From positions 308,626 to 372,625 of the forward strand of contig CAZVLB010000001.1 in assembly GCA_964627935.1 (NCBI GenBank): a stretch of 64,000 bases of DNA, written 5' to 3'. Below, piece after piece: positions 12,312-53,969 of the stretch. The translations under genes were made by a program, and so were the position numbers. A model generated the notes under the pieces. That model made no database searches. It was not told where the DNA came from and saw nothing but the letters and a program-made list of their open reading frames with translations. The DNA comes from an uncultured Ignavibacteria bacterium (GTDB lineage Bacteria; Zixibacteria; MSB-5A5; JAABVY01). Positions within the stretch are counted from its first letter, which is position 1. Every line of letters starts with the position of its first letter.

Positions 12312-14573
12312 CTATGTCTGCAAGAGATACTGAATCTTGAAAAATATCTGTCTTGAATATTGCTTCAGGCCGATATTCTCCTGCCCGTCGTAATCATGAA
12401 AATCATGCGTCGAACCGAAATACATCAGGGTAAACGGATTGAACCTGTAGGTGATCAGCGGATCGAATTCCCAGACTTGCGAGAAATCATTGTACTGGCT
12501 GATTAGGCGCAATGAAAGCTGTTTCCAGATCAGGTAGTCGACACGTGCACGCATGGCATAGCCATCGAAGATGTTCCCGCCGGTATCCAGGGAATCCGAT
12601 TTATAGTATCTGAAATTGGGTGAAATGGTCATCCGATTAAAGGGCTTTACAGTTGCCCAGAGCGAGGCTGAAAACTCGTTGCCCATGATTGGTTTCGGTT
12701 GCAAAGTCCTCGCAATCTGATGGCCGAAGCTGACTCTTGTCCCGAATCCGAGAAGATTACTGGGACGGGTATCCAGATAGACTGTCATATAGCGAATGCC
12801 CGGAAAATCGACTTCACGAAGCCTTTCCCAGCTTTCCAGGAAATGCAGGCCCAGGAAGGTTTGACCCTTGAGCTGGAATTCTGCATTGGCCCGGAACCAT
12901 TCATCCTTCTTGCGTTTATCAAAGTTCCATTTGCGCCCGATATCGAAATTGGGCTGGAAGCGTATCAGCATACCCTTGTTGACATAGAAATTGAAGCCGA
13001 ATGAAAAATCACCCAGACGGTAATTGTTCTGGCCCTCGAACCCATTTTCGGCACGAAATGTGGGTGATGCTTCCCAGTAATCCAGATCGAACCACCAGTG
13101 CTTGGTGAATCTTTCGAAGCTGGCATAAACCGCATGCCCCCAGTATTTTTCGCCGTCAAAATCTGCGGTGTTTCGCCCGCGGTTGAATTCCAAACCGTTA
13201 ATTCCATTTGTGATTGTGGGATCGTCCGGCTCATTCATATGGCTGGCGATAATCTGGGTTTCGATCTGGAAATTTTTCCAGAATTTGTATCCCATTTCCG
13301 CACTCAGGGCCGAACCGGCACCGCCCTCCGTATAACGTCTGTCAGTGATTGTTGCGCCCAGATGCGAATCCTCACCCATACTCTGTTTGACGCGGAAAAT
13401 ATTTGTGTAACTCTTGCCGTTTTCCAGGAATGCACTGCCTTCCTCGAAGGGAATGATGACCGGCGAGTGTTCATCATAGGCGGTCAGGAAAGCGATATTG
13501 GTTTTGTTCATTCGCGCGATATACTTGCCGGCCGCGATCGGATCATTGATTGAGCGTGTATAAACCAGATCGAACCATGAGTTAAACAGGTCACTGCCTT
13601 CCTGGAAGAAGGGTCGTCTTTCCGGGTAGAACAGGGCAAAGGTCGAGTTGACATTGATTTCGGTTGCATCCGATTCGACCTGGCTGAAATCCGGATTTAT
13701 CGTGGCCTCGGCGGTCATGTCGGATGAGATCGAATATTTCATGCCCAGCGAGGCTTCGCCCTGAATATCACCATTTACAAAGTTTGATGTCGGATCGCCG
13801 GTATTGGCAAGTGAACCGCTCTGGTAACTTACGAATGAGGGCAGAAACTCGATCGGGTTGCCCGATTCGACATTCCTGATTCCACGCAGGGTGCCCCATT
13901 GGCAGACAAAACAGGGTTCATCACGATCATAGGCGGCAAGTGAATATTGACGGCGGATTTCACGCGGGTGATTGCGCCAGAATTCCGCTTTCCAGACCTG
14001 TTCCTCGCGGTTGGGGAATTTCAGGCTGGAGAACGGAATCGCTATCTCCACCTGAAAACCGGAATCGGTGACATAGCCGTGCGAATCCCAGATCAGGTCA
14101 AAGCTGGCGTCCTCGCCGCCTTCGCTCGACCAGAGCGCATCGACCTGAACTCCATAGGGATTGACATTGAAGAAATAGGCCCATGACGCGTTACCGTAGG
14201 TATCTATAAAAAAGCCGACATTATCATCGCCGCCAAAGTTATCTCTTTCACTGTGTGAGGCTCTTACTTCCGATGGGTCATCATGAGCTATAAAGGCCAC
14301 ATAGATTTTATCCGCATCGTATGTGATCAAAGCTTCGGTTTTAACCGGCGGCTGACACATATCGCCGGGAAAACGCTCATGGAAATGATCGAAACGGGCG
14401 GCATCATGCCATCCCGGATCATCCAGATTGCCATCGATTTCTATTTTACTTTTGGTTGGATTGACTTCTATATCTGGTGAAAATATCTGTGTAAATGATG
14501 CGTAAGCAGGTTGTATGGCAAAGATACAAATGCCCGTAAGTATTAAAGTTAAGGTCTTTTTGCTAATCCCCAT
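12312..14573 (-). CDS. Large secreted protein, N-terminal CBM9/DOMON-like domain plus beta-rich C-terminal region (DUF5916-like); paralog of 14720-16978
   Basis: Signal peptide (LTLILTGICIFAIQPAYA), SD GGGAG upstream of the ATG at 14573, ~40% identity by eye to the adjacent paralog over the full length, shared C-terminus FFFKIQYL. Family assignment is from memory and unverified. Confidence 0.6.
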   Translation of the reverse strand: MGISKKTLTLILTGICIFAIQPAYASFTQIFSPDIEVNPTKSKIEIDGNLDDPGWHDAARFDHFHERFPGDMCQPPVKTEALITYDADKIYVAFIAHDDPSEVRASHSERDNFGGDDNVGFFIDTYGNASWAYFFNVNPYGVQVDALWSSEGGEDASFDLIWDSHGYVTDSGFQVEIAIPFSSLKFPNREEQVWKAEFWRNHPREIRRQYSLAAYDRDEPCFVCQWGTLRGIRNVESGNPIEFLPSFVSYQSGSLANTGDPTSNFVNGDIQGEASLGMKYSISSDMTAEATINPDFSQVESDATEINVNSTFALFYPERRPFFQEGSDLFNSWFDLVYTRSINDPIAAGKYIARMNKTNIAFLTAYDEHSPVIIPFEEGSAFLENGKSYTNIFRVKQSMGEDSHLGATITDRRYTEGGAGSALSAEMGYKFWKNFQIETQIIASHMNEPDDPTITNGINGLEFNRGRNTADFDGEKYWGHAVYASFERFTKHWWFDLDYWEASPTFRAENGFEGQNNYRLGDFSFGFNFYVNKGMLIRFQPNFDIGRKWNFDKRKKDEWFRANAEFQLKGQTFLGLHFLESWERLREVDFPGIRYMTVYLDTRPSNLLGFGTRVSFGHQIARTLQPKPIMGNEFSASLWATVKPFNRMTISPNFRYYKSDSLDTGGNIFDGYAMRARVDYLIWKQLSLRLISQYNDFSQVWEFDPLITYRFNPFTLMYFGSTHDFHDYDGQENIGLKQYSRQIFFKIQYLLQT

Positions 14574-14719: not shown

Positions 14720-16978
14720 TCAAATTTGCATCAGGTATTGAATCTTGAAAAAGAACTGCTGTGACGTCTGCCTGAAACTGGTATCATTAAAATTTTCGTA
14801 ATCATGAATATCATGAGTCGACCCGGCATACAGCATCGTAAATGGATTGATCTGGTATGTGATCAGGGGATCGATCTCGAGATTTTTATAATAATCGTTG
14901 TACTGGGTAATCAGCCTGAATGAAAGTTCGCGGCTGAACTGGTAGTTTATTTTCATGCGCGTTGTATAGATTTCGAACAACTGGCGGTCGACACCAAGCT
15001 CATCGCTAACCATGTACCGATATGAAGGGCTGAATGTAATCCGGTCAACAGGCCTGAGGTTGAGGCTTAAATATAGTGAAAGCTCTCTTCCCATTACTGC
15101 CGGTGCCACATTGCGTGCAATCTGATTGCCATAATTGACCGCCATTCCCAAACCTACGGTTTTTGACAGCTGGCTGTTCATGCAATAATGCGCCATCCAG
15201 ATATTATCAAACTGGATGCCAGCGAAATTTTCCGCACCGTAGTAAAAACGCGGATGAATACCGGTCTGGCCAATGGCTCTAAAATCGGCTTCCAGGCTGA
15301 TATATTCATCTTTAATCAGTCCGTTAAAATTCCAGACCCGTCCGGCCATGACATAGGGCCTGATCTTCTGGAATATTTTGCCCTGCGGATAAAAATTATA
15401 TCCGCTGTAGATTGACACCTTGCGCTGGTTATTGACCGGCTCGAAACCATTAGCGGCTCGGAATGTCGGGCTTCGTTCAAAATAGCTCACATCAACAACG
15501 AGTCCTCTCGAGGAATAACCGGTGGAGCCATAAAGCGCATGCCCCCAGAATTTTTCTCCGTCAAAGACAGCCGTATGTTTGCCGTCGTCAAACGTGTAAT
15601 CGCCAAATCCTGCAGTCTGCCCGGGATCATCATCCTCCGCAGTGCGGCTGGCCGTGGCCATCCATTGCAGGTAAAAGTTTTGGCTGAGACGGATATCACC
15701 GTCGACACCGAATAACGTCCCCGATCCGCCATCCTCAAACCTGCGGTCTGTTAAGACCAGGCCCATGAGTGAATTGTCGCCCATTGTCCGGCGCAGCCTG
15801 AAAATATTGGAGATGCTTTTTCCGGCCTGGATGTATGCGCTGTTTTCCTCGAAAGGCAGGATGATGGGCGAATGCTGATCACGTGCTGTCAGGAGGGCAA
15901 TACTTGTTCGGCCGCTACGGTTAACCAGCTTGGCGGCGTATTGCGGATCATTGATCGAACGTGTATAGACCACATCGATCCAGCTGTTGTAGAGGTCCGA
16001 GCCCTCCTGGAAAAAGGGCCGCTTTTCGGGATAGAACAGGGCGAAAGTCGTATTCACGTCTATCTGAGTAGCATCTGACTCAACCTGGCTGAAGTCAGGA
16101 TTAAAGGTAGCCTCAGCCACAAGACTGGACGAAAGTGAATATTTAATGCCCATTGATATTTCGCCGTCGATATCGGCCCGCTGCCAATCCGATGATGGAT
16201 CACGCAGGTCGCTCAGGCTGCCGCTTTGATAGCCGATTAATGAGGGCAGGATCTCGATACCCTGGCCGGGGGAAACATCTTCGATACCATGTAATGAGCC
16301 CCAGTTGCATGACAGGCAGGTTTCATTGCGGTCATAGGCCGACCAGCAGTACTGGTATTCGATTTCGCGCGGCCGATGGCGCATGATATCCAGGCTCCAT
16401 TGCTGTTCATTTTTGTCGGGAAAACGCAGGCTGGAAAAGGGAATGGCCAGTTCCACCTGATAGCCGGAGTCGGTTATCTGTGCCGCGGCATGCCAGATCA
16501 GGTCATAGCTGAAATCATCACTGTTGCCCTTTACGAAAATTGCATCGCCCTGGATTCCGCGCGGATTGACCTGGAAGATATACCCCTGGGCGCCGTCGCC
16601 GTATGTGTCGAACATAAAACAGACATCGTCATCATTGGATATTTTATCCCGTTCGCACAATGAGGCACGGATCAACTCAGGATTGTCATGACAGACTATA
16701 AAGGCATATAGATTGCTGTTATCATAGGTTACATAGGCTCTGGTTTCGACTGCAGGCTTTGTGTTTTCGCCGGGATAGTTTTCGCAGAAATTATCCATGA
16801 CCGCCGCATTGCGCCAGCCCGGGTCGCCGTATTTGCCGTCAATTGAAATCTCCCGGTCTGTTTTTTTGACAGTTAATTTCGGATGAACATTTGGTGAAAA
16901 ATCAGGTCCGGCTTTCAGGCCCGGACCTATCAGCAATATTGAAAAAAGTGTGATCAGCGATAGCAGTTTTGTTTTCAT
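14720..16978 (-). CDS. Large secreted protein, CBM9/DOMON-like plus DUF5916-like; tandem paralog of 12312-14573
   Basis: Start chosen at the internal ATG (MKTKLLSLITLFSILLIGPGLKA signal peptide), preceded by GGAGGAGG. The ORF track extends to 17032 but that N-terminus lacks a signal peptide. Confidence 0.6.
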   Translation of the reverse strand: MKTKLLSLITLFSILLIGPGLKAGPDFSPNVHPKLTVKKTDREISIDGKYGDPGWRNAAVMDNFCENYPGENTKPAVETRAYVTYDNSNLYAFIVCHDNPELIRASLCERDKISNDDDVCFMFDTYGDGAQGYIFQVNPRGIQGDAIFVKGNSDDFSYDLIWHAAAQITDSGYQVELAIPFSSLRFPDKNEQQWSLDIMRHRPREIEYQYCWSAYDRNETCLSCNWGSLHGIEDVSPGQGIEILPSLIGYQSGSLSDLRDPSSDWQRADIDGEISMGIKYSLSSSLVAEATFNPDFSQVESDATQIDVNTTFALFYPEKRPFFQEGSDLYNSWIDVVYTRSINDPQYAAKLVNRSGRTSIALLTARDQHSPIILPFEENSAYIQAGKSISNIFRLRRTMGDNSLMGLVLTDRRFEDGGSGTLFGVDGDIRLSQNFYLQWMATASRTAEDDDPGQTAGFGDYTFDDGKHTAVFDGEKFWGHALYGSTGYSSRGLVVDVSYFERSPTFRAANGFEPVNNQRKVSIYSGYNFYPQGKIFQKIRPYVMAGRVWNFNGLIKDEYISLEADFRAIGQTGIHPRFYYGAENFAGIQFDNIWMAHYCMNSQLSKTVGLGMAVNYGNQIARNVAPAVMGRELSLYLSLNLRPVDRITFSPSYRYMVSDELGVDRQLFEIYTTRMKINYQFSRELSFRLITQYNDYYKNLEIDPLITYQINPFTMLYAGSTHDIHDYENFNDTSFRQTSQQFFFKIQYLMQI

Positions 16979-17245
16979 GACCTCCTCCATCTCTGAAATC
17001 TGGATACGAAAAACTGGACAAAATAGTTTCATTTCAACTTTGAGCGAGAAATCATCGCCTTACAAAAAACCGATGACATTTATGTCCAGAAGGGAGGTTG
17101 TTTTTTGAAAGCCCATATATAGTATTGGTTTTGATGTAAATTGATTTTAAATTGTCAGGGTCATGAAATGCGCATAGGAAATCAAAAAAAATCTAACTTG
17201 CTTTTTTTTGAATAGGCTCTTAATTGGGCGGTAATTGGTGTAGTT

Positions 17246-19197: not shown

Positions 19198-19448
19198 TCG
19201 TATGTCGTACAATTATTAATAAGTTCAGTTTCGCATTCCAAGTCTTAATAAGCCAGAAAAAAACGAGTAATTTAGACTTTTTTTATTGACATGCTTGTCA
19301 AGGTTTCTTTGTTAAGGCAGGACATTAACATTATTTCAATGGATGATTGAATGTAAAACCAGGGGGTGGCTATGACCCATAACATTCGCAGCTAGTGTCC
19401 GGCAGCAGTTGTTCTTATTTTATTAACATTATTTCTGGGGGAAATTAC

Positions 19449-20606
19449 ATGTTTACTTTATTCCAGAGGCATCCTGGAACTGTTGTCCTTGGAATGATCC
19501 TCATTGGCTTGGTAATATCCGGTTGCGGGCAATCTCCCAACGGCCCGGAGAAGTCCGGCAGGTTCTGGGTGTTTGCCGCGGATTATGGAAATAATCAGGT
19601 ATACCGGATTGATTGTCAGAACGACCAGTTGACTGACAGCATCAGCTCTGCCGGTAATCCGGATAACTCACCCGCCCTGGTCAGGGCATCAATGGACGGT
19701 AATTATCTGTTTGTTGGCTATACTCGGGGAGGTGCCGCAATTTATGATGCCCAGACGCTCGGGCTGATAAAACAGATTGACATAAATATTGAGCCATTAT
19801 TCATAACAGAAAATAACATCATGCTCGGTTTCGAGGCCAGTGGAAGTCAGACCATTATCCATACTTATTCGCTGCCTTCTTTTGGCGAGACCGAGACGGA
19901 TCATTTGCCCTTCGCTTTACTTTACCCGAAATACAATCCGGCTGATGATTTGATATATGGGGTAGGAGAAGATGATCTGTCCAGATTTGACTCCACTTAT
20001 ATAGTCATCTATAATTATGTGGAAAATACAATTGAGCAAACAATGGAATTGTCTGGTGCCGATGGCACGGTTTACATGATTCAAAGTCTGGGTTTTGAGC
20101 TCGATGCCGCCAATAAGCTGCTGTACTTTAACGGCACGTATCAGGGGGTATCGATATCCAATTATTATTTAATCTGCTATGACCTGGAGGCGATGCAGGT
20201 AGTATATGCCAGGGAACTCACCGACAGCTACTGGATTACCGGGTTGCAGCTGATGCCGGCTGAACATCAGCTGGTCACAGTTGACAGGGATGGAGATTAT
20301 TTTCCGCAGGCCGGGCGGATTTCAATTTATGATTCACAAACCGGCGGGGTCCTGGGGCAAATGAATCTGGTTATCGAGCAAAACAGCGAGGTCGTACCGA
20401 TAGTTGCTCCTCTGCCATTGGCAGTTACGCTCGATGGCAAAAAGTCCTATGTCGGTTCCGGTGAGCTGGGCTCATTCGGCGACGGCTCGCAAGAAGGTAC
20501 CATAACCGTTATTAACATGGAGACCAGGGAGATCATCAAACACATCTGGCCTGACAGAAAGCACTACATCATAGACCTGACCATAGCACCAAAACGATCA
20601 TTATAG
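19449..20606 (+). CDS. Hypothetical lipoprotein, probably beta-propeller-like
   Basis: Start at the internal ATG with SD GGGGGA; signal peptide with lipobox (LVISGC); repetitive beta-strand-like segments. No recognisable catalytic motif. Confidence 0.55.
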   Translation: MFTLFQRHPGTVVLGMILIGLVISGCGQSPNGPEKSGRFWVFAADYGNNQVYRIDCQNDQLTDSISSAGNPDNSPALVRASMDGNYLFVGYTRGGAAIYDAQTLGLIKQIDINIEPLFITENNIMLGFEASGSQTIIHTYSLPSFGETETDHLPFALLYPKYNPADDLIYGVGEDDLSRFDSTYIVIYNYVENTIEQTMELSGADGTVYMIQSLGFELDAANKLLYFNGTYQGVSISNYYLICYDLEAMQVVYARELTDSYWITGLQLMPAEHQLVTVDRDGDYFPQAGRISIYDSQTGGVLGQMNLVIEQNSEVVPIVAPLPLAVTLDGKKSYVGSGELGSFGDGSQEGTITVINMETREIIKHIWPDRKHYIIDLTIAPKRSL

Positions 20607-25210: not shown

Positions 25211-25294
25211 TGCAAAATTTACTTATTTTATAATGATTACTGGCCAAAATGCCTTGCTTAAATGCTACTGCTAACATATAGGAGGAATAGCCTC

Positions 25295-26722
25295 ATGCGC
25301 ATCACGAGATGTAAACACATCCGGCATTCTGGCGCAATTCTATTTTCTCTCCTGTTTTTATTGATCTCAGCAGTTACACTGACAGCCTCGGACTTCGTGG
25401 CTGACAAGGACAAAGCCTGTCTCTATGAAGGCAATCTTGAAAGTGTGCAACCGGCTGATCATGAATTTCCGGAGGGTCTTAAGAATCGTGCGCCCTACCA
25501 GGGGGTATTGAAAATTTATGTCTGCGAAAAGGTCTCACGTTATAATGATTATCAGGGCGATCCCTACGAGCATGGATTTCTTGAGTTTGCCTATGATACG
25601 TCATTGAATCTCGAGTATCAGCAGACATTTAATCGCACGCTTACATGGGATCCCGCCAATCATGGCTGGAGCGGCGTTACCTCCGATAATATCGAGGTGA
25701 TCGCGGTACTTTTTAACCACATGGAAGGCCATCATGCTTATTCCGATCCGCCCAGCGGTGGTCATTTTCTGGCCTACTATGCTGATGCGACTGCAAAGGC
25801 CGAACCGGGTGGAACCGGCCATAATCAGGCCAGTGGCAGTTATACTCATACAGTATTTGTTGAAGAAGCAACATCGGGTACATGAGGATCCTGTCCAGCA
25901 ACGCGGGTCGCGTTGAGCACACTGTACGGGTTCGGAACCCACAATTTCCACTATGTTGCATTAGTTACCCAAAATTCATATGTTGGCCAGAGATTGAGCC
26001 AGCTAAATACCTACTATACTCCAACGACATACATCGATGCCGGCCAATCGCTTGTGGTCGGTGGCTACAGTAACCCCAGTTATTATGGCGGATTTATTGA
26101 AACCTCCGGCGAAAGACAGGTGCCCGAAATAGACCTTATCGTCAGTATGACCGCACAGGCAGGAAATACATATGAAATTGATATTTCGGCAACCCTGAAT
26201 ACTTTTATCAATGCCCCACCAAACAAGCCCTCGATCCCGGCCGGCGTGCAGCAGGGCACACTCATGACCGATTAAACTTACACAAGCTCGACAACTGATA
26301 TTGAAGGTGACCAGTTGTGGTACAAGTGGGACTGGGGTGACGGTCAGCAGAGTGACTGGCTGGGACCGTATGAATCCGGCGAGGAAGCTTCGGCTACTCA
26401 CAGCTGGGATGTGTCAAATACATACCAGATCAAGGTCAAGGCCAAAGATATCTATGATGCCGAAAGCTTATGGTCGACAGCATTCTTTGCTTATTTTGAA
26501 GGTATGCCATATATTTGCGGTGATGCAAACGGCGATGAGGGGATCAATGTCTCCGATGCTGTCTGGATCATCAACTATGTGTTCGTAACCGGAAGTCCTC
26601 CACCGGATCCATTGGAATCCGGCAATGTCAATTGTGACAGCGGAGTGAATGTCTCCGATGCTGTCTGGATCATCAATTACGTTTTCGTAACCGGCAGCCC
26701 CGGACCATGCGAATGCAAGTAA
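25295..26722 (+). pseudogene. Secreted PKD-domain / dockerin-like protein gene interrupted by two in-frame stop codons (TGA 25883-25885, TAA 26273-26275)
   Basis: ORFs 25262-25885, 25913-26275 and 26315-26722 are all in the same frame. SD GGAGG and signal peptide at the 5' end; a PKD domain (TYTSSTTDIEGDQLWYKWDWGDG...) straddles the TAA; the dockerin-like module is at the 3' end. Confidence 0.6.
26546..26694 (+). repeat. Intragenic tandem duplication of the dockerin-repeat coding segment (two ~47-bp near-identical copies, 102-bp period)
   Basis: AATGTCTCCGATGCTGTCTGGATCATCAACTATGTGTTCGTAACCGG (26546-26592) vs AATGTCTCCGATGCTGTCTGGATCATCAATTACGTTTTCGTAACCGG (26648-26694); related copies occur in the five other dockerin-family genes on both strands. 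Confidence 0.8.
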
Positions 26723-26740
26723 TATAGAATACCACTATTG

Positions 26741-26777
26741 ATCCGCGTCTGATATACTGGACGCGGATTTTTTTTTG
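26741..26777 (+). terminator. Rho-independent terminator after the interrupted dockerin gene
   Basis: ATCCGCGTC-tgatatactg-GACGCGGAT followed by a 9-T run. Confidence 0.8.
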
Positions 26778-26790
26778 GCTTTTCCACATA

Positions 26791-26815
26791 ATACAAGATG
26801 TAAAAAGTCTTGTAT
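26791..26815 (+). promoter_or_regulatory. 8-bp perfect inverted repeat between terminator and promoter upstream of the C25-like gene
   Basis: ATACAAGA-tgtaaaaag-TCTTGTAT immediately 5' of the putative promoter. Confidence 0.25.
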
Positions 26816-26842
26816 GGCATTCAATCACATAGAGTTAAATGG

Positions 26843-26870
26843 TTGACATTGAAGTAAATCTAAATATATT
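26843..26870 (+). promoter_or_regulatory. Putative sigma-70-type promoter for the C25-like peptidase gene
   Basis: TTGACA (26843-26848), 16-bp spacer, TATATT (26865-26870), ~155 bp upstream of the start codon. Confidence 0.3.
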
Positions 26871-27026
26871 TAGAGTACAAATGATGGTCATATCTGTCTC
26901 ATTTATGGTCTTACATACGCTATCCTCAAAAGGATGGACTTCTATGGGATAAAGCAACAGGCTTCCAAAAGTTTTTTCTCACAAAAGTGAAAATGATAAT
27001 CTTCATATAATCCGAAGGGAAAAAAG

Positions 27027-29531
27027 ATGCAATCGGACAGCTCATGCGCCAAAAAATCAAATGTGATTAGAATCACTATTCTTTCATTTTTTTCTGTACT
27101 GGTCTTGACTGCGGCCCTCTATGGCGGAGAGGTCACGGTCAGTTATGATTTCCAGGCTCCTGTTATTGAGAAGGTCATAATCGATGGCAAGATGTATGAT
27201 CGAGTGATCATGCCACAGACCTCGAATGGGGGAGAGACGGGCGAGCCCTCATTGCCATCCTCCGGAGCAAAAATTCTGATTCCGGCCAACTCCCGGGTTG
27301 AATCAATCCAGGTTACATTGGGTGATGAAATCTCCCTGGGCGATGGATTCTCAGTCGAGCCGTGTGGCTATCCGTTCAAGCTAAGCGCGCCCGAAGAGAT
27401 AGTTCCACCGCAACCGGATGCACAGATATATTCATCCGATGAGGCTTTTCCGGGAATAACGTATGAGCGAATAAATACTTATACATTGCGTGGCTATGAT
27501 ATCCTTATCCTTAAGCTTAATCCGGTACAGTATAAGCCGCTCAGCGGTGAACTTTCCTATTCTGATCAAATGCAGATTACTGTCAATACTGCAGATGCAG
27601 TTTACAGCAGGGAGACTTTTCGGGGAACGGCATCGGATGAACAGTCCGTGATCGATATCGTGGACAATCCCGAGACAGTTTTTTCGTATCGATCACTGCC
27701 GTCAAAAAATTATGGCGGCCGCGATCAATATGATCTGTTGATCATCACCAGCGAGGCGCTTAAACCGGCTTTCGATACGCTCAAGGCCTACCATGATTCC
27801 ACCGGAATGTCGACCTCGATACGAACCGAAGTCGATCTTGATATTTCCAGCGCATACCTGGTGAGAAAGTATATCAGGGATTTCTATAATGACTATGGAA
27901 TCGAGTATGTCCTGATAGGTGCGGATGATAATATCATCCCGGCTATGGATCTGTATGTGAAATCGTGGGACGGATATAATCCAGAAATTGAATATGAAAT
28001 GCCCGGCGATATCTACTTCGCCTGCCTTGATGATACATGGAATCATGACCGCGATGAGCACTGGGGAGAACCCAATGATGGGCCCGACGGCGGTGATGTC
28101 GATCTTATGGCCGATGTAAATGTCGGCCGTGCCTCTGTGGGCAATATCCCTGAGGCCAACAACTTTGTGCGCAAGACCATTGATTATGCCAACCTGTCCC
28201 GTTCGCAGCCGTATTTGCAGAATATCCTGCTGGTGGGTGAACATCTCGGTTTCGGGGGAGTCAGCGAATATGCCGGTAACTGCATGGATCAGCTCAAAAA
28301 CACATCATCATCAGACGGCTATACGACAACCGGGTTCGACACCAGCCTGTATGTTGTCGACCAGCTTTATGACCGCGACTGGACCGGAAACAACTGGCCC
28401 AAGGCTCAGGTTGTAAATCGCATAAATGAGGGCCGTCATTTTGTAAATCACCTCGGTCATGGCAGTCCCGGCTATGCCATGAAAATGTATAACAGCGATG
28501 TTGCCTATCTGACCAATGATGATTACTGCTTTGTATACTCGCAAACCTGCCTGGCGGGACATTTTGATAACACAGATTGTTTTGCCGAGTATATGACCAT
28601 AAAATATATGAATGGCGCATTTGCAATTGTCATGAATGCCCGTTACGGCTGGGGAATGTCAAACAGCACCGATGGTCCCTCGCAGAGATTCCACAGGCAG
28701 TTCCTGGATGCGATTTATGCCGAAAACACGCGCTCATTCAGCAAAGCCAACCATGATTCCAAACATGACAACCTGTATCGAATAAATCAGAGCTGTATGC
28801 GCTGGTGCTATTATGAGCTCAACCTTTTCGGCGATCCGACACTGGAGATGAATTATCACTGCGTCGATCCGGATGCCGATGGTTTTGCCACGCCCGGTTA
28901 TGAAAACAGCGAATGCCCGACCGACAACTGCCCCGGTTTTTATAACCCGGATCAGCTCGACAGCGACGGCGATGGTTTCGGCGACAGCTGTGACCTGTGC
29001 CAGGGATTCGATGATAATATAGACAGCGATGCCGATGGTGTCCCGGATGGCTGTGATATGTGCGCCGGTTATGACGATTATGCCGATGCGGATGAAGACA
29101 CTGTTCCGGATGGCTGCGATGTCTGCCCGGGTCATGATGACCTTCTGGACAGCGATGGCGATCTGCTGGCAGATGGATGTGATAACTGCCCCGATCATGC
29201 CAACGCCGAACAGCTCGATTATGACCAGGATGGGGTCGGAGATTTATGTGATAACTGTCCCGGCGACAGCAATCCGGATCAGGCCGATTCAGATTCTGAC
29301 GGTACCGGCGATGTCTGCGAATACATATGCGGTGACTGTAATGCCGATGGCGCGGTGAATGTCTCCGATGCGGTCGGTATTATCAATTACGTGTTCGTCT
29401 CAGGCAGTCCGGAACCGGATCCGATGGAATCCGGGGATGTTAATTGTGATGATAATGTTGATGTGTCCGATGGTGTTTACATCATCAACTTTATCTTTAC
29501 AAATGGGGATAACCCCTGCGACTGTGAATAG
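27027..29531 (+). CDS. Secreted clan-CD cysteine peptidase (gingipain/C25-like) with thrombospondin type 3 repeats and C-terminal dockerin-like module
   Basis: Signal peptide; His-Gly (VNHLGHGSPG) and Cys (YSQTCLAGHFD) dyad motifs in caspase-like order; ~8 TSP3-like repeats (DxDxDGxxDxCDxC); C-terminal CGDCNADGAVNVSDAVGIINYVF...PCDCE. Confidence 0.6.
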   Translation: MQSDSSCAKKSNVIRITILSFFSVLVLTAALYGGEVTVSYDFQAPVIEKVIIDGKMYDRVIMPQTSNGGETGEPSLPSSGAKILIPANSRVESIQVTLGDEISLGDGFSVEPCGYPFKLSAPEEIVPPQPDAQIYSSDEAFPGITYERINTYTLRGYDILILKLNPVQYKPLSGELSYSDQMQITVNTADAVYSRETFRGTASDEQSVIDIVDNPETVFSYRSLPSKNYGGRDQYDLLIITSEALKPAFDTLKAYHDSTGMSTSIRTEVDLDISSAYLVRKYIRDFYNDYGIEYVLIGADDNIIPAMDLYVKSWDGYNPEIEYEMPGDIYFACLDDTWNHDRDEHWGEPNDGPDGGDVDLMADVNVGRASVGNIPEANNFVRKTIDYANLSRSQPYLQNILLVGEHLGFGGVSEYAGNCMDQLKNTSSSDGYTTTGFDTSLYVVDQLYDRDWTGNNWPKAQVVNRINEGRHFVNHLGHGSPGYAMKMYNSDVAYLTNDDYCFVYSQTCLAGHFDNTDCFAEYMTIKYMNGAFAIVMNARYGWGMSNSTDGPSQRFHRQFLDAIYAENTRSFSKANHDSKHDNLYRINQSCMRWCYYELNLFGDPTLEMNYHCVDPDADGFATPGYENSECPTDNCPGFYNPDQLDSDGDGFGDSCDLCQGFDDNIDSDADGVPDGCDMCAGYDDYADADEDTVPDGCDVCPGHDDLLDSDGDLLADGCDNCPDHANAEQLDYDQDGVGDLCDNCPGDSNPDQADSDSDGTGDVCEYICGDCNADGAVNVSDAVGIINYVFVSGSPEPDPMESGDVNCDDNVDVSDGVYIINFIFTNGDNPCDCE

Positions 29532-29550
29532 TATAATTTAGTATAAAGAC

Positions 29551-29590
29551 GGCCCGGTCAGAGCTTTTGGCCGGGCTTCTTATTATTTGA
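29551..29590 (+). terminator. Rho-independent terminator after the C25-like peptidase gene
   Basis: GCCCGG-tcagagcttttg-CCGGGC followed by TTCTTATTATTT. Confidence 0.6.
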
Positions 29591-29614
29591 CAAATTTCGC
29601 ACTTGAGTTATATT
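29587..29614 (+). promoter_or_regulatory. Putative sigma-70-type promoter for gene 29729-31210
   Basis: TTGACA (29587-29592), 16-bp spacer, TATATT (29609-29614); same architecture as the 26843 element. Confidence 0.3.
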
Positions 29615-29728
29615 CTCATAAGGTACAACCGGCCATCAGGGCCGAAATTACCTGCCTTAAATTTACAGGCTTGATTCATAGACCTTAGTACCCGATAGTA
29701 AATATATATTGCCTGAAAGGGACCTGTT

Positions 29729-31210
29729 ATGAAATTAAAATCAGCATCACTAATTATTTTCATGCTTCTAATGGCCGCTGTAACATTAAACGCTGCCAAC
29801 CGGGTGATAATGAATTCGATTCCGCAATCGCCGGTTCATAATACGGAAACTGTTCTTCAGATTGTGACTCAATGGGAAAACGACATCCTTCTGCAGGGCG
29901 TTTCCAATGGATTCGAGTTGACTGTCAGTGGAAATATCGTTTGTGAGATAGATTCCGGAAGTGCCGCAATCGTAGCAGGAAGCCGTCTTGACGGCGCAAT
30001 GGGCTGGAATTTCCGCTATTACCAGGCGCCGTTCGATTCAATAATCATGGGCGGTATCTATATTCCCGGCACATATGATGGTGTGCCCGCCGGAGCATTA
30101 GCTGATGCCTGGACAATGGACCTGAACCTGTCTTATCCCGGCGGAGATCCGGTAACAGATACAGGAACGGTATGTATTGACTCATTGTCGATCTCACCCT
30201 CGGGGCAGTGGATCTGGGATGACGGTACGGGAAACATCAATCCGACTTTTAATGACGGCACGGGTCCGTTGTGCATAGAGGTTGTCTGGCAGATTTGTAC
30301 CGATTCCGATAATGACGGCTATGGTGATCCCGGATTTCCCGAGAATGAATGCCCTGATGATAACTGTCCCGATGTCTTCAATCCGGATCAGCTTGATTCC
30401 GACGGTGATGGTGTCGGCGATTTGTGTGATATCTGCCCCAATCATGAGCTGGATGATTGCTGTAATCCCACAGTAGATAATAATGCACCTCAGATTACAT
30501 CACCATCCAGTATAACGGTTCTTCCGGTTGTGGATGAGGTCAATTATATTGCTGAATGTGATGATCCCGATTGTTCGGGCGGTGAATTGATTTTCAGTGT
30601 CGAGAATGTGCCCGCATGGCTGATTCTCAATGGCGATACGATAAGCGGCACGGCATCATGCGGCGAAGAGGATGCATTGCTGAGACTGATCGTTTCCGAC
30701 GGCACATTGGCGGATACGCTGATAGTCACGGTTGATGTCGATAATAGCAACCAGGCACCACAGATTACAGATCCGGCCGATACGATCAAAGTCTATAACG
30801 GTACTGAATTTGTGTATTATCCGACCATCGATGATCCTGATGATGCTACCCATACGATTAATTATCTGGCATTGCCCGACTGGGCCTCGGTCGTAAATGA
30901 CAGTGTTAAGGCCACCGTACCGTTGGTCAATAATATTCAGGACCTGACAGTGGCTGTCTCCGATGTTTGCGGCGCGGACACATTGAGCTTCCCGGTCTGG
31001 GCCTATATCTGCGGTGATGGTAATAATGACGGCGATGTAAATGTCAGTGATGCTGTCTGGATCATCAACTATGTTTTTGTCAGTGGTGATGCTCCGCTGC
31101 CGATTGAGGCCGGAGATGCTAACTGCGACGGCGATGTTAATGTCAGCGACGCGGTCTGGATCATTAACTTTGTATTCGTCAGCGGCCCGGCCCCCTGCGA
31201 GTGCCCATAA
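29729..31210 (+). CDS. Secreted protein with TSP3 repeats, Ig/cadherin-like domains and C-terminal dockerin-like module
   Basis: Signal peptide (LIIFMLLMAAVTLNAA), TSP3 repeats (DSDNDGYGD...CPDVFNPDQLDSDGDGVGDLCDIC), C-terminal [23 protein letters not shown]...PCECP. Confidence 0.65.
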   Translation: MKLKSASLIIFMLLMAAVTLNAANRVIMNSIPQSPVHNTETVLQIVTQWENDILLQGVSNGFELTVSGNIVCEIDSGSAAIVAGSRLDGAMGWNFRYYQAPFDSIIMGGIYIPGTYDGVPAGALADAWTMDLNLSYPGGDPVTDTGTVCIDSLSISPSGQWIWDDGTGNINPTFNDGTGPLCIEVVWQICTDSDNDGYGDPGFPENECPDDNCPDVFNPDQLDSDGDGVGDLCDICPNHELDDCCNPTVDNNAPQITSPSSITVLPVVDEVNYIAECDDPDCSGGELIFSVENVPAWLILNGDTISGTASCGEEDALLRLIVSDGTLADTLIVTVDVDNSNQAPQITDPADTIKVYNGTEFVYYPTIDDPDDATHTINYLALPDWASVVNDSVKATVPLVNNIQDLTVAVSDVCGADTLSFPVWAYICGDGNNDGDVNVSDAVWIINYVFVSGDAPLPIEAGDANCDGDVNVSDAVWIINFVFVSGPAPCECP

Positions 31211-31569: not shown

Positions 31570-33222
31570 ATGAAAATCAAATATTTTTCCGTACCGGTGA
31601 TAATTTGTATGCTTTTTATGGGTGAAACACTTCTCGCCCAGCAAAGCACTACCGGCCCGGTACCGCCCGAAGGTGTTGATCTGGGCTCGACATTGAAGTC
31701 AAGGTCGCAGGTGACGATTGAAGGGGTACCCCGTTATATCTGGCATCACGGCTGTGGGCCGACTGCGGCCGGCATGGTGATTGGCTATTGGGATGGACAT
31801 GGCTATGGTGACCTTGTTGATGGTGAGGCGATGGTCCAGCTCGGAAATGTCAAGACAATGATTGCAAGCGATAACGGCCTGGCGGTCTGCAATGATGTCT
31901 TCGCCGATCATTACCGCGATTATTCATGTCCGCGTGATGACACGGGGCCGCTTCTGGCCGATAAATCTGAGACAGGTGGAGCGCATGAAAATGAATGCCT
32001 GGCTGATTTTATGAAAACATCATGGAGCTCAATCGGCAATCGTTATGGCTGGAGCTATGACAGTGATTTGCAGATTTCACTGGATCAATATGTGCCGTAT
32101 GTAAATCCGGCCTATAGCGTGGAGACCGAGAATATTGCCTGCTGGGATGCTGAATTCAGTTGGCAAAGATACAAGGCCGAAATCGATTCCGGGCGGCCGG
32201 TGGTACTTCTGGTTGACACTGACAGCGACGGTTCTACCGATCATTTTGTGACAGCGATCGGCTATGATGACTCAAGCCTGGAATATGGAATATATAATAC
32301 ATGGGACACACAGCTTCACTGGCACAGCTGGGCCGATATTTCCCCGGGCCAGCCCTGGGGAGTTTACAGCATGACGACAATGAAGTGGACCGGTATATGT
32401 GTTGATTCAGATGGCGATAACTGGGGCGACCCCGGTCATCCGGAAAACATATGCGATACCGATAACTGCCCGGATGTCTACAATCCAGCCCAGGATGATA
32501 CAGATGGCGATGGGCTGGGTGATGCCTGTGATCCTGATATCGATGATGATGGATTCCTTAATGAAGATGACAACTGTCCCTATGCTCACAATATTGATCA
32601 GTCCGACACTGACGGCGACAACATAGGTGATGTCTGCGATAATTGCCCGATAGTTTCAAATCCGATGCAGTGGGATGAAGATTCCGATGGCGTCGGAGAT
32701 GCCTGCGACGGCCAGTTGCATATGCAATGCTATGATGTGCCCGATGGAATAATAGGGGAGCCGTATTCATATCAATTCCAGGCTGTGGGTGGTGTGACAC
32801 CCTATAACTGGGAAAAAGTCTGGGGGCAGTTCCCCTATGGTTTGAGTTTCGACAATCAAACAGGGATACTGCAGGGCATACCGACATGGGAGTCGGATTA
32901 TAGTTTCCGTATGCGTGTTACCGATTCCGATTCACCGATGAATGAAGATACCATGCTGATTACGATAGTCATCAGCCAACCACCGCAACCGGATTATATC
33001 TGCGGGGATGCAAATTCCGATGACGACGTCAATATCAGCGATGCCGTATTTGTCATAAATTATATTTTCGTTGCCGGTACTACTCCCGATCCGATTGACT
33101 CGGCGGATACGAATTGTGATGATGGTGTCAATATCAGTGATGCAGTCTGGATTATAAATTTCGTTTTTGCCGGCGGCAATGCGCCCTGTGATACGAATGA
33201 TGATGGTCAGCCCGACTGCTGA
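31570..33222 (+). CDS. Secreted papain-like cysteine peptidase (C39/C10-like) with TSP3 repeats, He_PIG-type Ig domain and C-terminal dockerin-like module
   Basis: Signal peptide; putative catalytic Cys in [17 protein letters not shown]; TSP3 repeats; putative Ig motif ([29 protein letters not shown]); dockerin-like C-terminus. Confidence 0.55.
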
Positions 33223-50022: not shown

Positions 50023-51549
50023 TTATGAGTTGATCTTGCCGATGACTTTTTCAACCGCTTCCAGTATTTCGCCCGATTTTACCACCTCACTGAGTTTATT
50101 AATGTCATTATAAAGCGGACGGTCCTCTTCGAGGAAATCGACATGCTTTCTGACTACCTCATAGGCGGCATTGGAGCCGGGGCTGAGCTTAAGCGGCTTT
50201 CTGAAATCGGCCGCCTGGGCCGCATTGAGAAATTCTATCGCCAGCACACCGTTGGCATTTTCTATAATATCACGTGACTTGATAGCCGAGGTCATACCCA
50301 TGGAGACGAAATCCTCCTGGTCGGCCGCGGCCGGAATCGATCCCGTAGCGGCCGGATGAGACAATATGCGATTTTCATTGACCAGTGCTCCGGCGGTGTA
50401 CTGCGCCAGCATCAATCCCGAAAACATTCCCGCGCCCTTGGTCAAAAATGCCGGCAGTCCGGAGGAGAGATGCGGGTTGGTCAGACGATTCACGCGTCTT
50501 TCCGACAGCACGCATAATGTCGTAATCGACATACCCAGAAATTCTGTTGCGAAAGCAATTGGTGAACCCTGGAAATTGGCGCCGGAGATGACCGTGTCAT
50601 CTTCCGGGAAGAAAATCGGGTTATCGGAAACGCCGTTTAATTCCGTCTCGATCAGCTTCCTGATAAATGCCATTGTATCTTTAGCTGTGCCGACTGCCTG
50701 CGGTGTGCTGCGCAGTGAATAGGCATCCTGCACTTTCTTGCCCTTTTGCGCCAGCATTTCGCTGTCTGCCGATATGCGGCGGATATTTTCTGCGCAGGTT
50801 ATGGCGCCCTTATGCCCGCGTACCCGATGCAGTCTGTCATCGTAGCCGGACATGTTTGCATTGAGCACCTCGAGCACCATGGCAGTGGCAATCTCATGCT
50901 GCCTGATCCATCTGTCGGCATCGTACCATTGCAGGCAGGACATGCCGGTGATGACATTGGAGCCGTTGATAGTCGCCAGGCCGTCACGGGCCTGATATGT
51001 GATCGTCTCGATACCGGCACGTTTCATTGCCTCGGCGCCGGGCAGACGTTCACCCTCGAAAAACGCTTCACCCTCGCCCATCGGCACGAGAGCCATCTGA
51101 CCCATGGGTGAAAGGTCTCCCGAGGCTCCCACCGAGCCTTTCTGGCACATTACCGGCGTAACGCCTTTGTTGATCATCTCCACCAGCGTTTCCACGACTT
51201 TCAGGCGCAGTGCGGAATGACCGTTGCAGTGCACATTGATGCGGCTCAGTATCGATGCGCGCGCATCCTCAATCGGAACCGGGTCGCCGATCCCGGCGGC
51301 ATGGCTGTAGATCAGGTAGCGCTGGAATTTCTCCACCTGTTCGGGTGTCAGCACAACCTCTGAAAGTTCGCCGATCCCGGTGTTGACGCCGTACATGATG
51401 GCGTTTTCCTTTAGCTTTTTCTCCACCAGTTCACGGCAGACCTTTATTCTTTCGATAGCTTCCTGCGATAACTCTATTTTTTCATTATGGCGGGCAATTT
51501 CAACCATTTTTTCGATTGACAGGTTATTCCCGTTGATGCTTATAGCCAT
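50023..51549 (-). CDS. hutH: Histidine ammonia-lyase (HAL/PAL family, MIO cofactor)
   Basis: MIO-forming Ala-Ser-Gly triad in GSVGASGDLSPMG; overall HAL-like length. Start set at the ATG preceded by GGAGG (MAISINGN...). Substrate could be His or an aromatic amino acid. Confidence 0.8.
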   Translation of the reverse strand: MAISINGNNLSIEKMVEIARHNEKIELSQEAIERIKVCRELVEKKLKENAIMYGVNTGIGELSEVVLTPEQVEKFQRYLIYSHAAGIGDPVPIEDARASILSRINVHCNGHSALRLKVVETLVEMINKGVTPVMCQKGSVGASGDLSPMGQMALVPMGEGEAFFEGERLPGAEAMKRAGIETITYQARDGLATINGSNVITGMSCLQWYDADRWIRQHEIATAMVLEVLNANMSGYDDRLHRVRGHKGAITCAENIRRISADSEMLAQKGKKVQDAYSLRSTPQAVGTAKDTMAFIRKLIETELNGVSDNPIFFPEDDTVISGANFQGSPIAFATEFLGMSITTLCVLSERRVNRLTNPHLSSGLPAFLTKGAGMFSGLMLAQYTAGALVNENRILSHPAATGSIPAAADQEDFVSMGMTSAIKSRDIIENANGVLAIEFLNAAQAADFRKPLKLSPGSNAAYEVVRKHVDFLEEDRPLYNDINKLSEVVKSGEILEAVEKVIGKINS

Positions 51550-51657
51550 CATTACCTCCGCAAAAATTGGCCAAAAAATATCAAGCTTGTAATTTACCAG
51601 ACCAGCCCGGAAAGTCAAGCGCAATCGCTATCGCTCTTGTTCAATTGATATTTCAGC

Positions 51658-51713: not shown

Positions 51714-53969
51714 TCAGCAATCACAAGGCGCGGGGCCGTTTGCGAAAACCCAGTTAATCAGCCAGACTGCGTCGGAGACGTTTACATCGCCGTCGCAATT
51801 GACCTCGCCCGACTCTATCGGGTCAGGGGAGGGGCCGTTCAGGAAGACATAGTTGATAATCCAGACCGCGTCGGAAACATTAATCTCGCCGTCATTATTG
51901 GCATCGCCACAGGTATAGCCGTTATCCTCGGTTACCACTATTGTAAGCCAGATTGTGTCCGAACTGGGCGGATTGGATGAATCCTCGACACCCATCTTGA
52001 AGCTGAATTCCGAGGCCCAGGTGGGAACGCCGGAGAGAATCGGCGGATCACCATCAGTATATTCCAGGCCATAGGGGAATTGTCCGGTCAGATGTGTCCA
52101 GGTATAAGGTGGTACACCACCGATAGCATTGAATTCCTTTTCGAAATACTGCCCCAGATAGGCCGTATCGACCGGATTGGAGATTATCGCCATCCCGAAG
52201 GGCGCTTCTGTCTTGGTGCAAAGAACCCATTCTGTCGGATCGAATTTAATCGAATCAACCGGTTGCGGAACATCCAGCACAAAACTCTGCGTGCGTGTCG
52301 AATTAAATACCTTGTAGATCGAATCCTGGCCATTGTAGAAAACCTGTATATCTATCAGCATGGGGAAGACATTCCAGTTGAACTGAGGTCCAACCTGCGT
52401 CTGTTCGATATACAAGACCACTTTATCGCCATTGCCGTTATTGTAATTGGTCCAGCCATATTCATAGTGGGGATTACCATATTGATATACCCAGGCGTTA
52501 AAGAACCACTCCAGATCATCACCATATACCGCCTCGGCATGAGCGACGAAATCATCGGTAACGGCTGTACCGTAGCGAAGATCAGGATCGGACTGATAGT
52601 TGCGCAATATCTGGAACATGGCTGAATCTCCGACAATGGAACGCAACATATGCAGAACTCTGGAACCCTTATTGTAGGTTGATCCGCCATCGAATATATA
52701 GCCGGTGTCGAGATCATAAACATAAACCGGATCTTCATTCAGGCAGGACTGCGTATGAATATAATCATGATAAAACCCGGTGCCGAAGATCTCTTCGAAA
52801 TACAGCGCTTCCGAATACGTGGCAAAACCCTCATTGAGCCAGATATGATGAAAGCTTTCACAAGTGATCAGGTCGCCCCACCAGTGATGAGCCATTTCGT
52901 GGATAATGATCCATTCATTTACGATGTAATGTACCAGTGCTACCATGGTCTGGTTTTCCATGCCCCACAGATCATAAATCGTCTGGCCGTATTTCTCGTC
53001 GATGAAGGGATAGAGGCCGAATATATCCGAAAAAATCTGCAGTCCCGGAATCGTATAGGTCAGATAATTATTCACTGCCTGAGGGTAACCGTCATAGGCG
53101 TAGACCACCACCGGCATAGTGTCGCCGGGAGCATATTCCCAGGCCTGTTCATAAAGATTCTGGTTGGCGCAGGTAAAATGGATCAGGTAGATTGCCATCG
53201 GGTATGTGCTCTTCCAGTGTGTGGTGCTGGTCCCGTCGCCGTTGGAATTAATACTTTGCAGGAGACCATTGGCGCAGGCTGTCATGGACGATGGATGGGT
53301 CACACGCAGGTCGAGGCTGTCGATTTTATCATAGGGGAAATCTTTGCATGGAAACCAGTTTCGTGAACCGAACGGTTCGCATTCTGTCTGGCAGATGGAG
53401 CCGTTGTAAATCGCATCGAAACTCAATCCTCCGCCGGTGTTATTCTGGGGAGTTCCTATAAATGGCGGCGAGCCATGATACTGCACAGTTACCGCGAAAT
53501 CTTCGCCGATATTTGCAGGCTCATTAAGATAAACGGTAAACAGCACTCCGTTTTGCAGATAGCTTGCCGGCTGACCGTTGATACTGACATCGTCGATGGT
53601 AAGCGCGCTGGTGAAAGTCAGGTCAACGAGTGCAAGATTGTCCACATTGGATTTTGCATTAACTGTCGTAACACCGGAAATTGTCTGGCCGGAAAAATCC
53701 AGGGCGATATCGATATCATAATGGGTGACATCATACTGAAACATGTTGGATGTGGGGCTGCTCAGGCCATAGGGGCCGTCCAGCCTTTTTGTGTCATGCC
53801 CATGATTCTTGATAATCTCCGGGCCTAAGATTTTTCTGCTTTCCAGAATCCATTCTCTGATATCACCTTCATACGGCGGCAGTTGCGGAATCTCCCGGTC
53901 GTTTTCGGCCAGCAATACACCGCACAGGATAAGGCATACCAGTCCTGTCAGATAAAACAAGAGCTTCAT
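51714..53969 (-). CDS. Secreted M1-family zinc metallopeptidase with He_PIG-type Ig domain and C-terminal dockerin-like module
   Basis: Signal peptide; HEMAHHWWGDLITCESFHHIWLNEGFATY (HExxH-x18-E M1 signature); putative Ig motif GGVPPYTWTHLTGQFPYGL; C-terminal [23 protein letters not shown]...PCDC. SD GAGGAGG upstream. Confidence 0.82.
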   Translation of the reverse strand: MKLLFYLTGLVCLILCGVLLAENDREIPQLPPYEGDIREWILESRKILGPEIIKNHGHDTKRLDGPYGLSSPTSNMFQYDVTHYDIDIALDFSGQTISGVTTVNAKSNVDNLALVDLTFTSALTIDDVSINGQPASYLQNGVLFTVYLNEPANIGEDFAVTVQYHGSPPFIGTPQNNTGGGLSFDAIYNGSICQTECEPFGSRNWFPCKDFPYDKIDSLDLRVTHPSSMTACANGLLQSINSNGDGTSTTHWKSTYPMAIYLIHFTCANQNLYEQAWEYAPGDTMPVVVYAYDGYPQAVNNYLTYTIPGLQIFSDIFGLYPFIDEKYGQTIYDLWGMENQTMVALVHYIVNEWIIIHEMAHHWWGDLITCESFHHIWLNEGFATYSEALYFEEIFGTGFYHDYIHTQSCLNEDPVYVYDLDTGYIFDGGSTYNKGSRVLHMLRSIVGDSAMFQILRNYQSDPDLRYGTAVTDDFVAHAEAVYGDDLEWFFNAWVYQYGNPHYEYGWTNYNNGNGDKVVLYIEQTQVGPQFNWNVFPMLIDIQVFYNGQDSIYKVFNSTRTQSFVLDVPQPVDSIKFDPTEWVLCTKTEAPFGMAIISNPVDTAYLGQYFEKEFNAIGGVPPYTWTHLTGQFPYGLEYTDGDPPILSGVPTWASEFSFKMGVEDSSNPPSSDTIWLTIVVTEDNGYTCGDANNDGEINVSDAVWIINYVFLNGPSPDPIESGEVNCDGDVNVSDAVWLINWVFANGPAPCDC

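Follow-up and report, generated by a model that had tools for sequence, protein, structure and literature searches.

Short identical DNA runs dispersed in a Zixibacteria contig probably reflect conserved coding cores of type I dockerins

The DNA analysed here (the window) is a 64,000-nucleotide (nt) stretch of contig CAZVLB010000001.1 from an uncultured bacterium of the Zixibacteria, in which an earlier reading of the letters (the original prediction) had reported near-identical repeats of a dockerin-coding segment in both orientations. The window carries 12 half-repeats of the pattern D-x-N-x-D-x-x-(V/I)-(N/D)-(V/I)-S-D followed by a helix, two per module and 99–102 nt apart, which gives six C-terminal modules (Table 1). 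All six passed Pfam Dockerin_1 (PF00404) with 31.2–43.0 bits compared to a gathering cut-off of 22.9. The module of g54 matched type I dockerins of the PDB (best 4dh2_B, E = 9e-6, query residues 5–61 of 71 amino acids (aa)) in an alignment that spans both Ca-loop regions. Each module has an intact two-half architecture with a stop codon at its end, and the N-termini of all six carriers show a basic and then a hydrophobic stretch, signal-peptide-like as judged by eye. Four of the six carriers are peptidase-like (C25, two M1 and a C39-like protein); the others are the thioredoxin-like/PKD protein g26 and the unassigned g31, for which Pfam gave no domain besides the dockerin.

Table 1. Dockerin carriers and their modules in the window, and the Logan contigs that match it.
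Feature	Position	Strand	Description
g26	25262-26722	+	signal-peptide-like N-terminus, thioredoxin-like region (JGI name of homologue), PKD, dockerin
g26 dockerin module	26513-26716	+	halves 26513-26614 and 26615-26716; Dockerin_1 31.8 bits; exact 26-mer and 29-nt run
g29	27027-29531	+	Propeptide_C25, Peptidase_C25 (gingipain-like), TSP3, dockerin
g29 dockerin module	29325-29528	+	divergent core AVGIINYVF / GVYIINFIF
g31	29729-31210	+	secreted protein, TSP3-like repeats, dockerin; no other Pfam domain found
g31 dockerin module	31007-31207	+	holds the exact 26-mer 31049-31074
g33	31570-33222	+	Peptidase_C39_2-like, TSP3, He_PIG Ig-like, dockerin
g33 dockerin module	32998-33198	+	Pfam Dockerin_1
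g51	51714-53969	-	M1 aminopeptidase, Ig-like, dockerin
g51 dockerin module	51717-51914	-	27-nt run in common with g54 at 51843-51869
g54	54022-56607	-	M1 aminopeptidase paralogue (47% aa identity to g51), PKD/Ig, dockerin
g54 dockerin module	54025-54222	-	27-nt run at 54151-54177
L094	17672-26466		no end in a dockerin core
L095	26649-31069		both ends in cores (g26.2, g31.1)
L096	26649-30739		start in g26.2 core
L098	31051-39532		start in g31.1 core
L097	51854 to beyond 64000		start in g51.1 core

The 26-mer GATGCTGTCTGGATCATCAACTATGT does occur exactly twice, at 31049–31074 and at 26555–26580 (the g26.1/g31.1 pair); the original prediction had placed the latter copy 5 nt too high, at 26560–26585. 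Copies with 2–3 mismatches lie at 26657–26682(+), 51847–51872(-), 54056–54081(-) and 54155–54180(-), and none was expected from 100 shuffles of the sequence. A six-frame motif scan and translation of the open reading frames (ORFs) placed every copy in the core of a dockerin half-repeat, that is, the end of the Ca-binding loop and the start of the next helix ((V/I)N(V/I) plus 11 residues of the DAVWIINYV type), which occurs twice per module. Exact in-register runs of at least 26 nt were found in three pairs (29, 27 and 26 nt), all direct: besides the 26-mer, a 29-nt run joins both halves of the g26 module (26546–26574 and 26648–26676) and a 27-nt run the tandem M1 paralogues g51 and g54. The longest exact match between inverted pairs was 19 nt. 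The reported 47-bp repeat could be located as the intra-module pair 26547–26592 and 26649–26694, which is only ~93% identical. BLASTN of the window against itself recovered the short matches but no near-identity over modules: the modules (143–204 nt) aligned at 66–76%, with only sub-stretches of 53–75 nt reaching 80–91%, so that the term "near-identical repeats" was too strong. Compared pairwise over their full length, the modules show 59–71% DNA identity.

We compared this DNA identity with what protein conservation would give in three controls. When the 12 peptide segments were back-translated with the codon usage of the window, a null that ignores codon context, the same-codon fraction at identical residues was 0.410 ± 0.020 compared to 0.465 observed. 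The Nei–Gojobori proportion of synonymous differences (pS) between the six modules ranged from 0.66 to 0.97 (mean 0.77), saturated in every pair, and equalled that between window modules and orthologues in other genera. The proposal that conservation extends at the DNA level beyond that of the protein is therefore not upheld for the modules, saturation of synonymous sites being the observation that the proposal itself had named as speaking against it. For the third control, GTDB species genomes were scanned with a degenerate pattern that codes for DAVWIINYV; this yielded at least 91 8-kb blocks from 6 metagenome-assembled genomes (MAGs), 4 of them labelled Zixibacteria, and 219 half-repeats for comparison with the 12 of the window. 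The same-codon fraction was 0.433 for pairs from different genomes, 0.448 for different loci of the same genome, 0.450 for different modules of the same 8-kb locus and 0.474 within the same module; runs of at least 26 nt occurred in 0.36%, 0.27%, 1.6% (2/123) and 4.2% of these pairs, respectively. Window half-repeats paired with those of other genomes gave 0.442 and 0.34%, and pairs within the window 0.465 and 4.5% (3/66). Random six-module sets drawn from the other MAGs irrespective of genome served as an empirical null, and the window did not stand out from them in mean nt identity (0.636 compared to 0.643 ± 0.020, P = 0.66), same-codon fraction (0.465 compared to 0.441 ± 0.026, P = 0.18) or longest exact run (29 nt compared to 26 ± 9, P = 0.31). 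Module copies inside the window are thus no more alike than copies from separate genomes. We believe, with a probability of roughly 85%, that the "repeats" are conserved coding cores of old, vertically inherited type I dockerins, to which codon bias adds, and not DNA elements. The observation is real but ordinary: the domain family is known, and new only in having members in a poorly studied phylum.

The codons of the core bear on how identical runs arise. The exact 26-mer is also present in a Zixibacteria MAG (locus L059) and in the metagenome contigs L092 and L093, whose dockerins are only ~74% identical to those of the window; a metagenome scan for it matched only two unrelated dockerins and did not recover the window's own contig. 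The 108 copies of the 26-mer that codes for DAVWIINYV fall into 76 distinct sequences. Two copies agree fully in 0.8% of all pairs, and many of these pairs join different genomes; the window copy at 54155–54180, for instance, recurs unchanged in L062, L069 and L089. At this rate at least one identical pair is expected in ~8% of windows with five such 26-mers (10 pairs × 0.8%). The motif has skewed codons (Val GTC 69%, Asp GAT 75%, Ala GCG 52%), which speaks for selection on the core as nucleic acid besides protein, for instance as part of a folded mRNA or as a site bound by a DNA-binding protein. We surveyed the same dipeptides outside dockerins in long ORFs of the window and the scanned loci (0.58 Mb), and found GTC at 66% of Val codons before Trp compared to 29% overall, GAT at 78% of Asp codons before Ala compared to 68%, and GCG at 34% of Ala codons before Val compared to 21%. 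GTG and GTT are avoided before TGG (8–9%), a genome-wide codon-pair bias. The Val and Asp skews therefore recur without any dockerin, whereas the Ala skew is only partly accounted for (52% in the motif, 34% at Ala-Val elsewhere), and the motif skew largely follows the general codon-pair bias of these genomes. Rfam at gathering thresholds gave no match anywhere in the window. With this and the 76 distinct 26-mers, selection on RNA or DNA is highly improbable, and we rejected it since these dipeptides are coded in the same way where no dockerin is involved.

Several observations weigh against the reading as conserved coding cores. The back-translated sets held 0.07 pairs with runs of at least 26 nt compared to the 3 observed, and against the random module sets this count was again nominally high (3 compared to 0.46 ± 0.69, P = 0.015, uncorrected), the only one of five measures to be so. 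Of the three long-run pairs, one is intra-module, a class with a base rate of 4–5%, and another joins the tandem paralogues. The two halves of a module resembled each other somewhat more than halves taken from different modules did (same-codon fraction 0.474–0.478 compared to 0.432), with runs of at least 26 nt in 4–5% of same-module pairs and in 0.2–0.6% of different-module pairs. Because of this excess, occasional short homogenisation within modules is plausible, including in g26, where a derived VTGSP is present in both halves. The copies g26.1, g26.2 and g31.1 all use the less common Ala codon GCT (21% of motif copies). Finally, no cohesin partner was found (the Cohesin Pfam family had no match in the ~36 window ORFs scanned), so the docking function is argued from homology.

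Low-level gene conversion in short tracts between neighbouring dockerin segments would keep the binding face uniform and leave tracts of 26–29 nt. The number of long-run pairs favours it, as do the excess identity of same-module pairs across MAGs and the VTGSP of g26, in place of which both halves read VGG or IGG in the orthologues. Modules of the same 8-kb locus also share such runs in 1.6% of pairs compared to 0.3–0.4% elsewhere, but this counts only 2 of 123 pairs. We nevertheless hold this conversion to be quite improbable: overall synonymous identity is like that between genomes, with pS saturated in every pair; the orthology signal exceeds the paralogy signal; an identical pair such as g26.1/g31.1 would arise by chance in ~8% of windows with five such 26-mers; and the flanks of the tracts are ~30% diverged, so that mismatch repair would reject an exchange (PMC8918686). 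It is also part of a wider and unlikely, though not negligible, picture, in which Zixibacteria display dozens of tagged C25, C10, C11, M1, M14, M28, S8 and PAD-type enzymes per genome together with a tagged selenoprotein. In such a peptidase-centred display, occasional conversion of short tracts, between module halves and between neighbouring genes, would have a part in keeping a near-invariant binding face uniform, and the g26.1/g26.2/g31.1 identities would be its footprints. We also considered homogenisation of the g51 and g54 dockerins after duplication. Their same-codon fraction (0.585, 24/41) compares to 0.49 for the gene body and 0.63 for one catalytic block of 100 codons; it lies within the range of catalytic blocks (0.40–0.63), and the candidate was rejected.

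The window and the Zixibacteria MAG SpSt-1246 share 72–77% nt identity in syntenic genes. Orthologues were found for g26 in SpSt-1246, Bin_249 and SRP141376_co2_104, for g29 in SpSt-1246 and Bin_249, and for g51 in SpSt-1246. The g26 and g29 dockerins are 0.71–0.77 identical in aa to those of their orthologues compared to 0.62–0.73 to most window paralogues. The g26 family keeps the signature GDANxDE...DPLxSG, and the g29 family GDCNADG...PMESG (shared by the orthologues in L064 and L072) together with changes of W to G, F or Y. Because orthologues are nearer than paralogues and the gene-specific signatures are kept, the tags of g26 and g29 predate the split of the sampled lineages. The signal is less clear for g51, whose orthologue score (0.72) is inside the range of window paralogues. 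Recent domain shuffling, which the original prediction had inferred, does not fit with g26 and g29 dockerins that retain their signatures in three other Zixibacteria MAGs, as the tag was inherited with the gene. Gene conversion as an effect of the repeats fares no better, given the saturated pS, the lack of a within-genome excess (0.448 compared to 0.433) and orthologues nearer than paralogues.

An inversion of the ~20 kb between plus- and minus-strand copies had also been put forward. On SpSt-1246 contig DSEQ01000042.1, window 52016→43944 corresponds to 24250→31993 and window 32951→26178 to 56001→62874, so that both clusters, with the block adjoining g51, have the same order and relative orientation, with ~13 kb of extra DNA between them. 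SpSt-1246 is the only relative that spans both clusters; in Bin_249, g26 and g29 are still adjacent. No rearrangement with breakpoints at the repeats was seen in SpSt-1246 (one relative across both clusters) or Bin_249 (g26–g29). The minimal efficient processing segment (MEPS) for recombination was reportedly put at 23–27 bp by Shen and Huang in 1986. The direct runs of 26, 27 and 29 nt are at the lower edge of the MEPS (~23–30 bp) and have flanks ~30% diverged, and the inverted runs of at most 19 nt fall below it. RecA-dependent exchange needs a strict-identity block of at most 30 bp, and mismatch repair aborts the exchange when the flanks have diverged (PMC8918686). The window thus resembles recombinogenic dispersed repeats in concerted evolution (RecA-dependent, above the MEPS) in having short direct and inverted exact identities, but differs from them in its diverged flanks, short inverted runs, saturated synonymous sites, lack of within-genome homogenisation and kept synteny. 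With inverted identity below the MEPS and SpSt-1246 collinear, the inversion finds no support, nor do the conversion and shuffling readings. The short identities are a consequence of conservation and not a driver of shuffling.

Gene content differs locally within this synteny. SpSt-1246 lacks a g31 orthologue in the expected position; between its g29 and g33 orthologues it has instead an unrelated gene on the opposite strand (L072:1747-2892(+)). The window homologue of that gene is at 19395–20606(+), ~9 kb upstream of g29, and the g29–g33 gap of the window is taken up by g31. This is a local rearrangement of gene content and not a dockerin-to-dockerin deletion, its boundaries not matching the dockerin cores. 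The ORF in SpSt-1246 is lipoprotein-like, without a significant Pfam domain, and its N- and C-terminal stretches resemble each other. The segment between the two dockerin clusters codes for amino-acid and branched-chain acyl-CoA catabolism (carboxyltransferase, biotin carboxylase, enoyl-CoA hydratase, thiolases, acyl-CoA dehydrogenases, a class IV aminotransferase and an aromatic amino acid lyase), and no mobile-element genes were seen among its scanned ORFs.

The expectation that the repeats would trouble metagenome assembly held. Logan contigs from runs SRR7048224, SRR7048225 and SRR7048227, built at k = 31, are 100% identical to the window (Table 1), and 5 of their 9 ends within it lie in the g26.2, g31.1 or g51.1 cores (26649 twice, 31051, 31069 and 51854), although these cores account for well under 1% of its length. 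Exact runs inside the window (≤29 nt) do not reach k-1, so that the graph probably branches because of the many further dockerins that the genome and its community contain. Not every core breaks a contig, as a longer Logan contig with g54 exists, and the longer MAG assembly spans these break points, with synteny backing its joins at g26 and g51. One could still suspect that the identical stretches are themselves artefacts, chimeric joins or collapsed repeats, since the longer assembly had to bridge cores at which k = 31 contigs break (26649, 31051/31069, 51854) and synteny gives no backing to the join at the g31 dockerin, SpSt-1246 having no g31 orthologue. This is scarcely credible: contigs of three runs are 100% identical on both sides of the breaks and run into the core themselves, gene order over the g26 and g51 cores agrees with SpSt-1246 and Bin_249, and all six modules keep two halves up to the stop codon. 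Exact-protein look-ups of g31, g51 and the histidine ammonia-lyase gene (50023–51624) returned no record; for g31 and g51 the missing whole-gene records are probably due to Logan contigs breaking inside their dockerins.

We return to the conserved coding cores of inherited dockerins and to how they come to look like DNA repeats. Strong purifying selection keeps the core amino acids nearly invariant, and ordinary codon and codon-pair bias then give some copies equal codons over 26–29 nt, as shown above. The copies are old, with saturated synonymous sites, and have been inherited with their host gene since before the sampled Zixibacteria lineages diverged, as is shown for g26 and g29 and less clearly for g51. 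By homology, the module would serve for Ca2+-dependent docking and fasten secreted peptidases to the cell surface or to a partner of the cohesin type. Its spread was probably ancient and went through the shuffling of larger C-terminal cassettes, because g33 and g51 share a two-domain Ig-like plus dockerin cassette, 53% identical over 148 aa with a pS of 0.85. The only effect at the DNA level that we saw was that de Bruijn assemblies with a short k broke at the cores. More generally, what looks like dispersed DNA repeats can arise from a strongly conserved protein motif combined with codon-pair bias, and such mimicry can be controlled for by back-translation, by pairs of copies from different genomes and by random draws of real modules. 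In short-k assemblies of Zixibacteria-rich metagenomes, dockerin genes are likely under-recovered or truncated. The biology that may merit study is the large undescribed set of dockerin-tagged peptidases next to an amino-acid catabolism cluster, and a dockerin-tagged selenoprotein candidate with a UxxC motif.

The dockerin set extends well beyond the window. DAVWIINYV occurs in at least 91 8-kb blocks (L001–L091, six MAGs), with at least 46–74 half-repeats per well-sampled Zixibacteria MAG, and 47 of 53 related Zixibacteria ORFs had a dockerin match above the cut-off. The commonest partners in these 53 long ORFs were the peptidases C25, M14, S8, M28, C10 and C11, the Porphyromonas-type peptidyl-arginine deiminase (PAD_porph) and the binding or Ig-like domains PKD, TSP3, He_PIG, BACON and FG-GAP. 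The cargo, dominated by these peptidases, M1 and PAD_porph, resembles the type IX secretion cargo of Porphyromonas. As in the clostridial type I dockerins (PF00404; 4dh2_B, 3ul4_B, 1daq_A), the window modules consist of two tandem segments, here of ~33 codons each, with an EF-hand-like Ca2+ loop (DxNxDGxxNxxD) and then a helix at the C-terminus of secreted enzymes. The halves are near-duplicates in both, which suggests a symmetric (dual) binding face. In contrast to the clostridial case, the carriers are peptidase-like and not glycoside hydrolases, the host is Zixibacteria-like and Gram-negative, the helix motif is far more uniform, and conserved cysteines are present. These extra cysteines (for example in 26513–26716 and 54025–54222) lie in xCGD before loop 1, in NCD in loop 2 and in a C-terminal PC(D/E)(C); they are atypical for clostridial dockerins and may be disulfide clamps. 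Some dockerin proteins have a further ...DGxPDC tail.

A parallel is known from another candidate phylum. In the Cloacimonadota, "Ca. Stygibacter" has C25 (gingipain-like) and S8 peptidases with signal peptides and C-terminal dockerins, a 3,755-aa scaffoldin with tandem cohesins was found there, and a cellulosome-like complex was proposed (PMC8542988). The Zixibacteria cargo is likewise C25, S8, M14, M28, C10, C11 and PAD_porph. Unlike in "Ca. Stygibacter", however, neither the window nor the loci, a sample of only ~0.7 Mb of dockerin-adjacent DNA, gave a scaffoldin-like repeat ORF (non-dockerin, at least 350 aa, internal repeats of at least 80 aa). For Baltic sediments, Zixibacteria have been named as one of the groups that probably supply exported peptidases (PMC6365825), and none of the papers searched links Zixibacteria with dockerin or cohesin. 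The same dockerin flavour was also seen on very large proteins in L033, L052 and L075 of the MAG CAZRMY01, labelled Thermoplasmatales archaeon. These loci have a GC content of 36–42% and no strong nucleotide similarity to the Zixibacteria loci; they could reflect a mis-binned contig, horizontal transfer or a motif common across domains.

The g26 protein is probably a secreted selenoprotein with a UxxC motif. It has an in-frame TGA at 25883–25885, and the same codon is present in the orthologues at L064:7923-7925(-), L070:1494-1496(+) and L072:7167-7169(-). The protein is conserved on both sides of the TGA (HTVF(V/L)EE(A/C)T...-U-xxCP). The homologues P0002, P0004 and P0005 have Cys at the U position (CxxC), and JGI names one of them "thiol-disulfide isomerase/thioredoxin"; the Zixibacteria genes are split at the TGA by gene callers (P0001, P0003, P0006). 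Counted from the first base of the TGA codon, a conserved hairpin with a G-rich loop (AACGCG-loop-CGCGTT) starts 17 nt downstream; it resembles a selenocysteine insertion sequence (SECIS). A second in-frame stop, a TAA at 26273–26275, is specific to the window, where it replaces a conserved Tyr (LMTEYTYT in three orthologues) and separates the thioredoxin-like part of g26 from the PKD and dockerin part. Since the independently assembled Logan contig L094, 100% identical, also has this TAA, it is probably a real nonsense mutation in the population rather than an assembly error.

Other self-matches of the window lie outside the dockerins. TSP3-like repeats with the Ca-binding pattern DNCPxxxNPDQxDxDxDGxGDxCD occupy 28922–29320 (g29), 30301–30429 (g31) and 32403–32708 (g33), upstream of the dockerins; at 60–75% identity they form a second family of DNA "repeats" that is likewise protein-driven. 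The longest self-match of the window, 813 nt at 67% with patches of 82–92%, is between the tandem CBM9_1 plus DUF5916 paralogues at 12312–14573(-) and 14720–17032(-).

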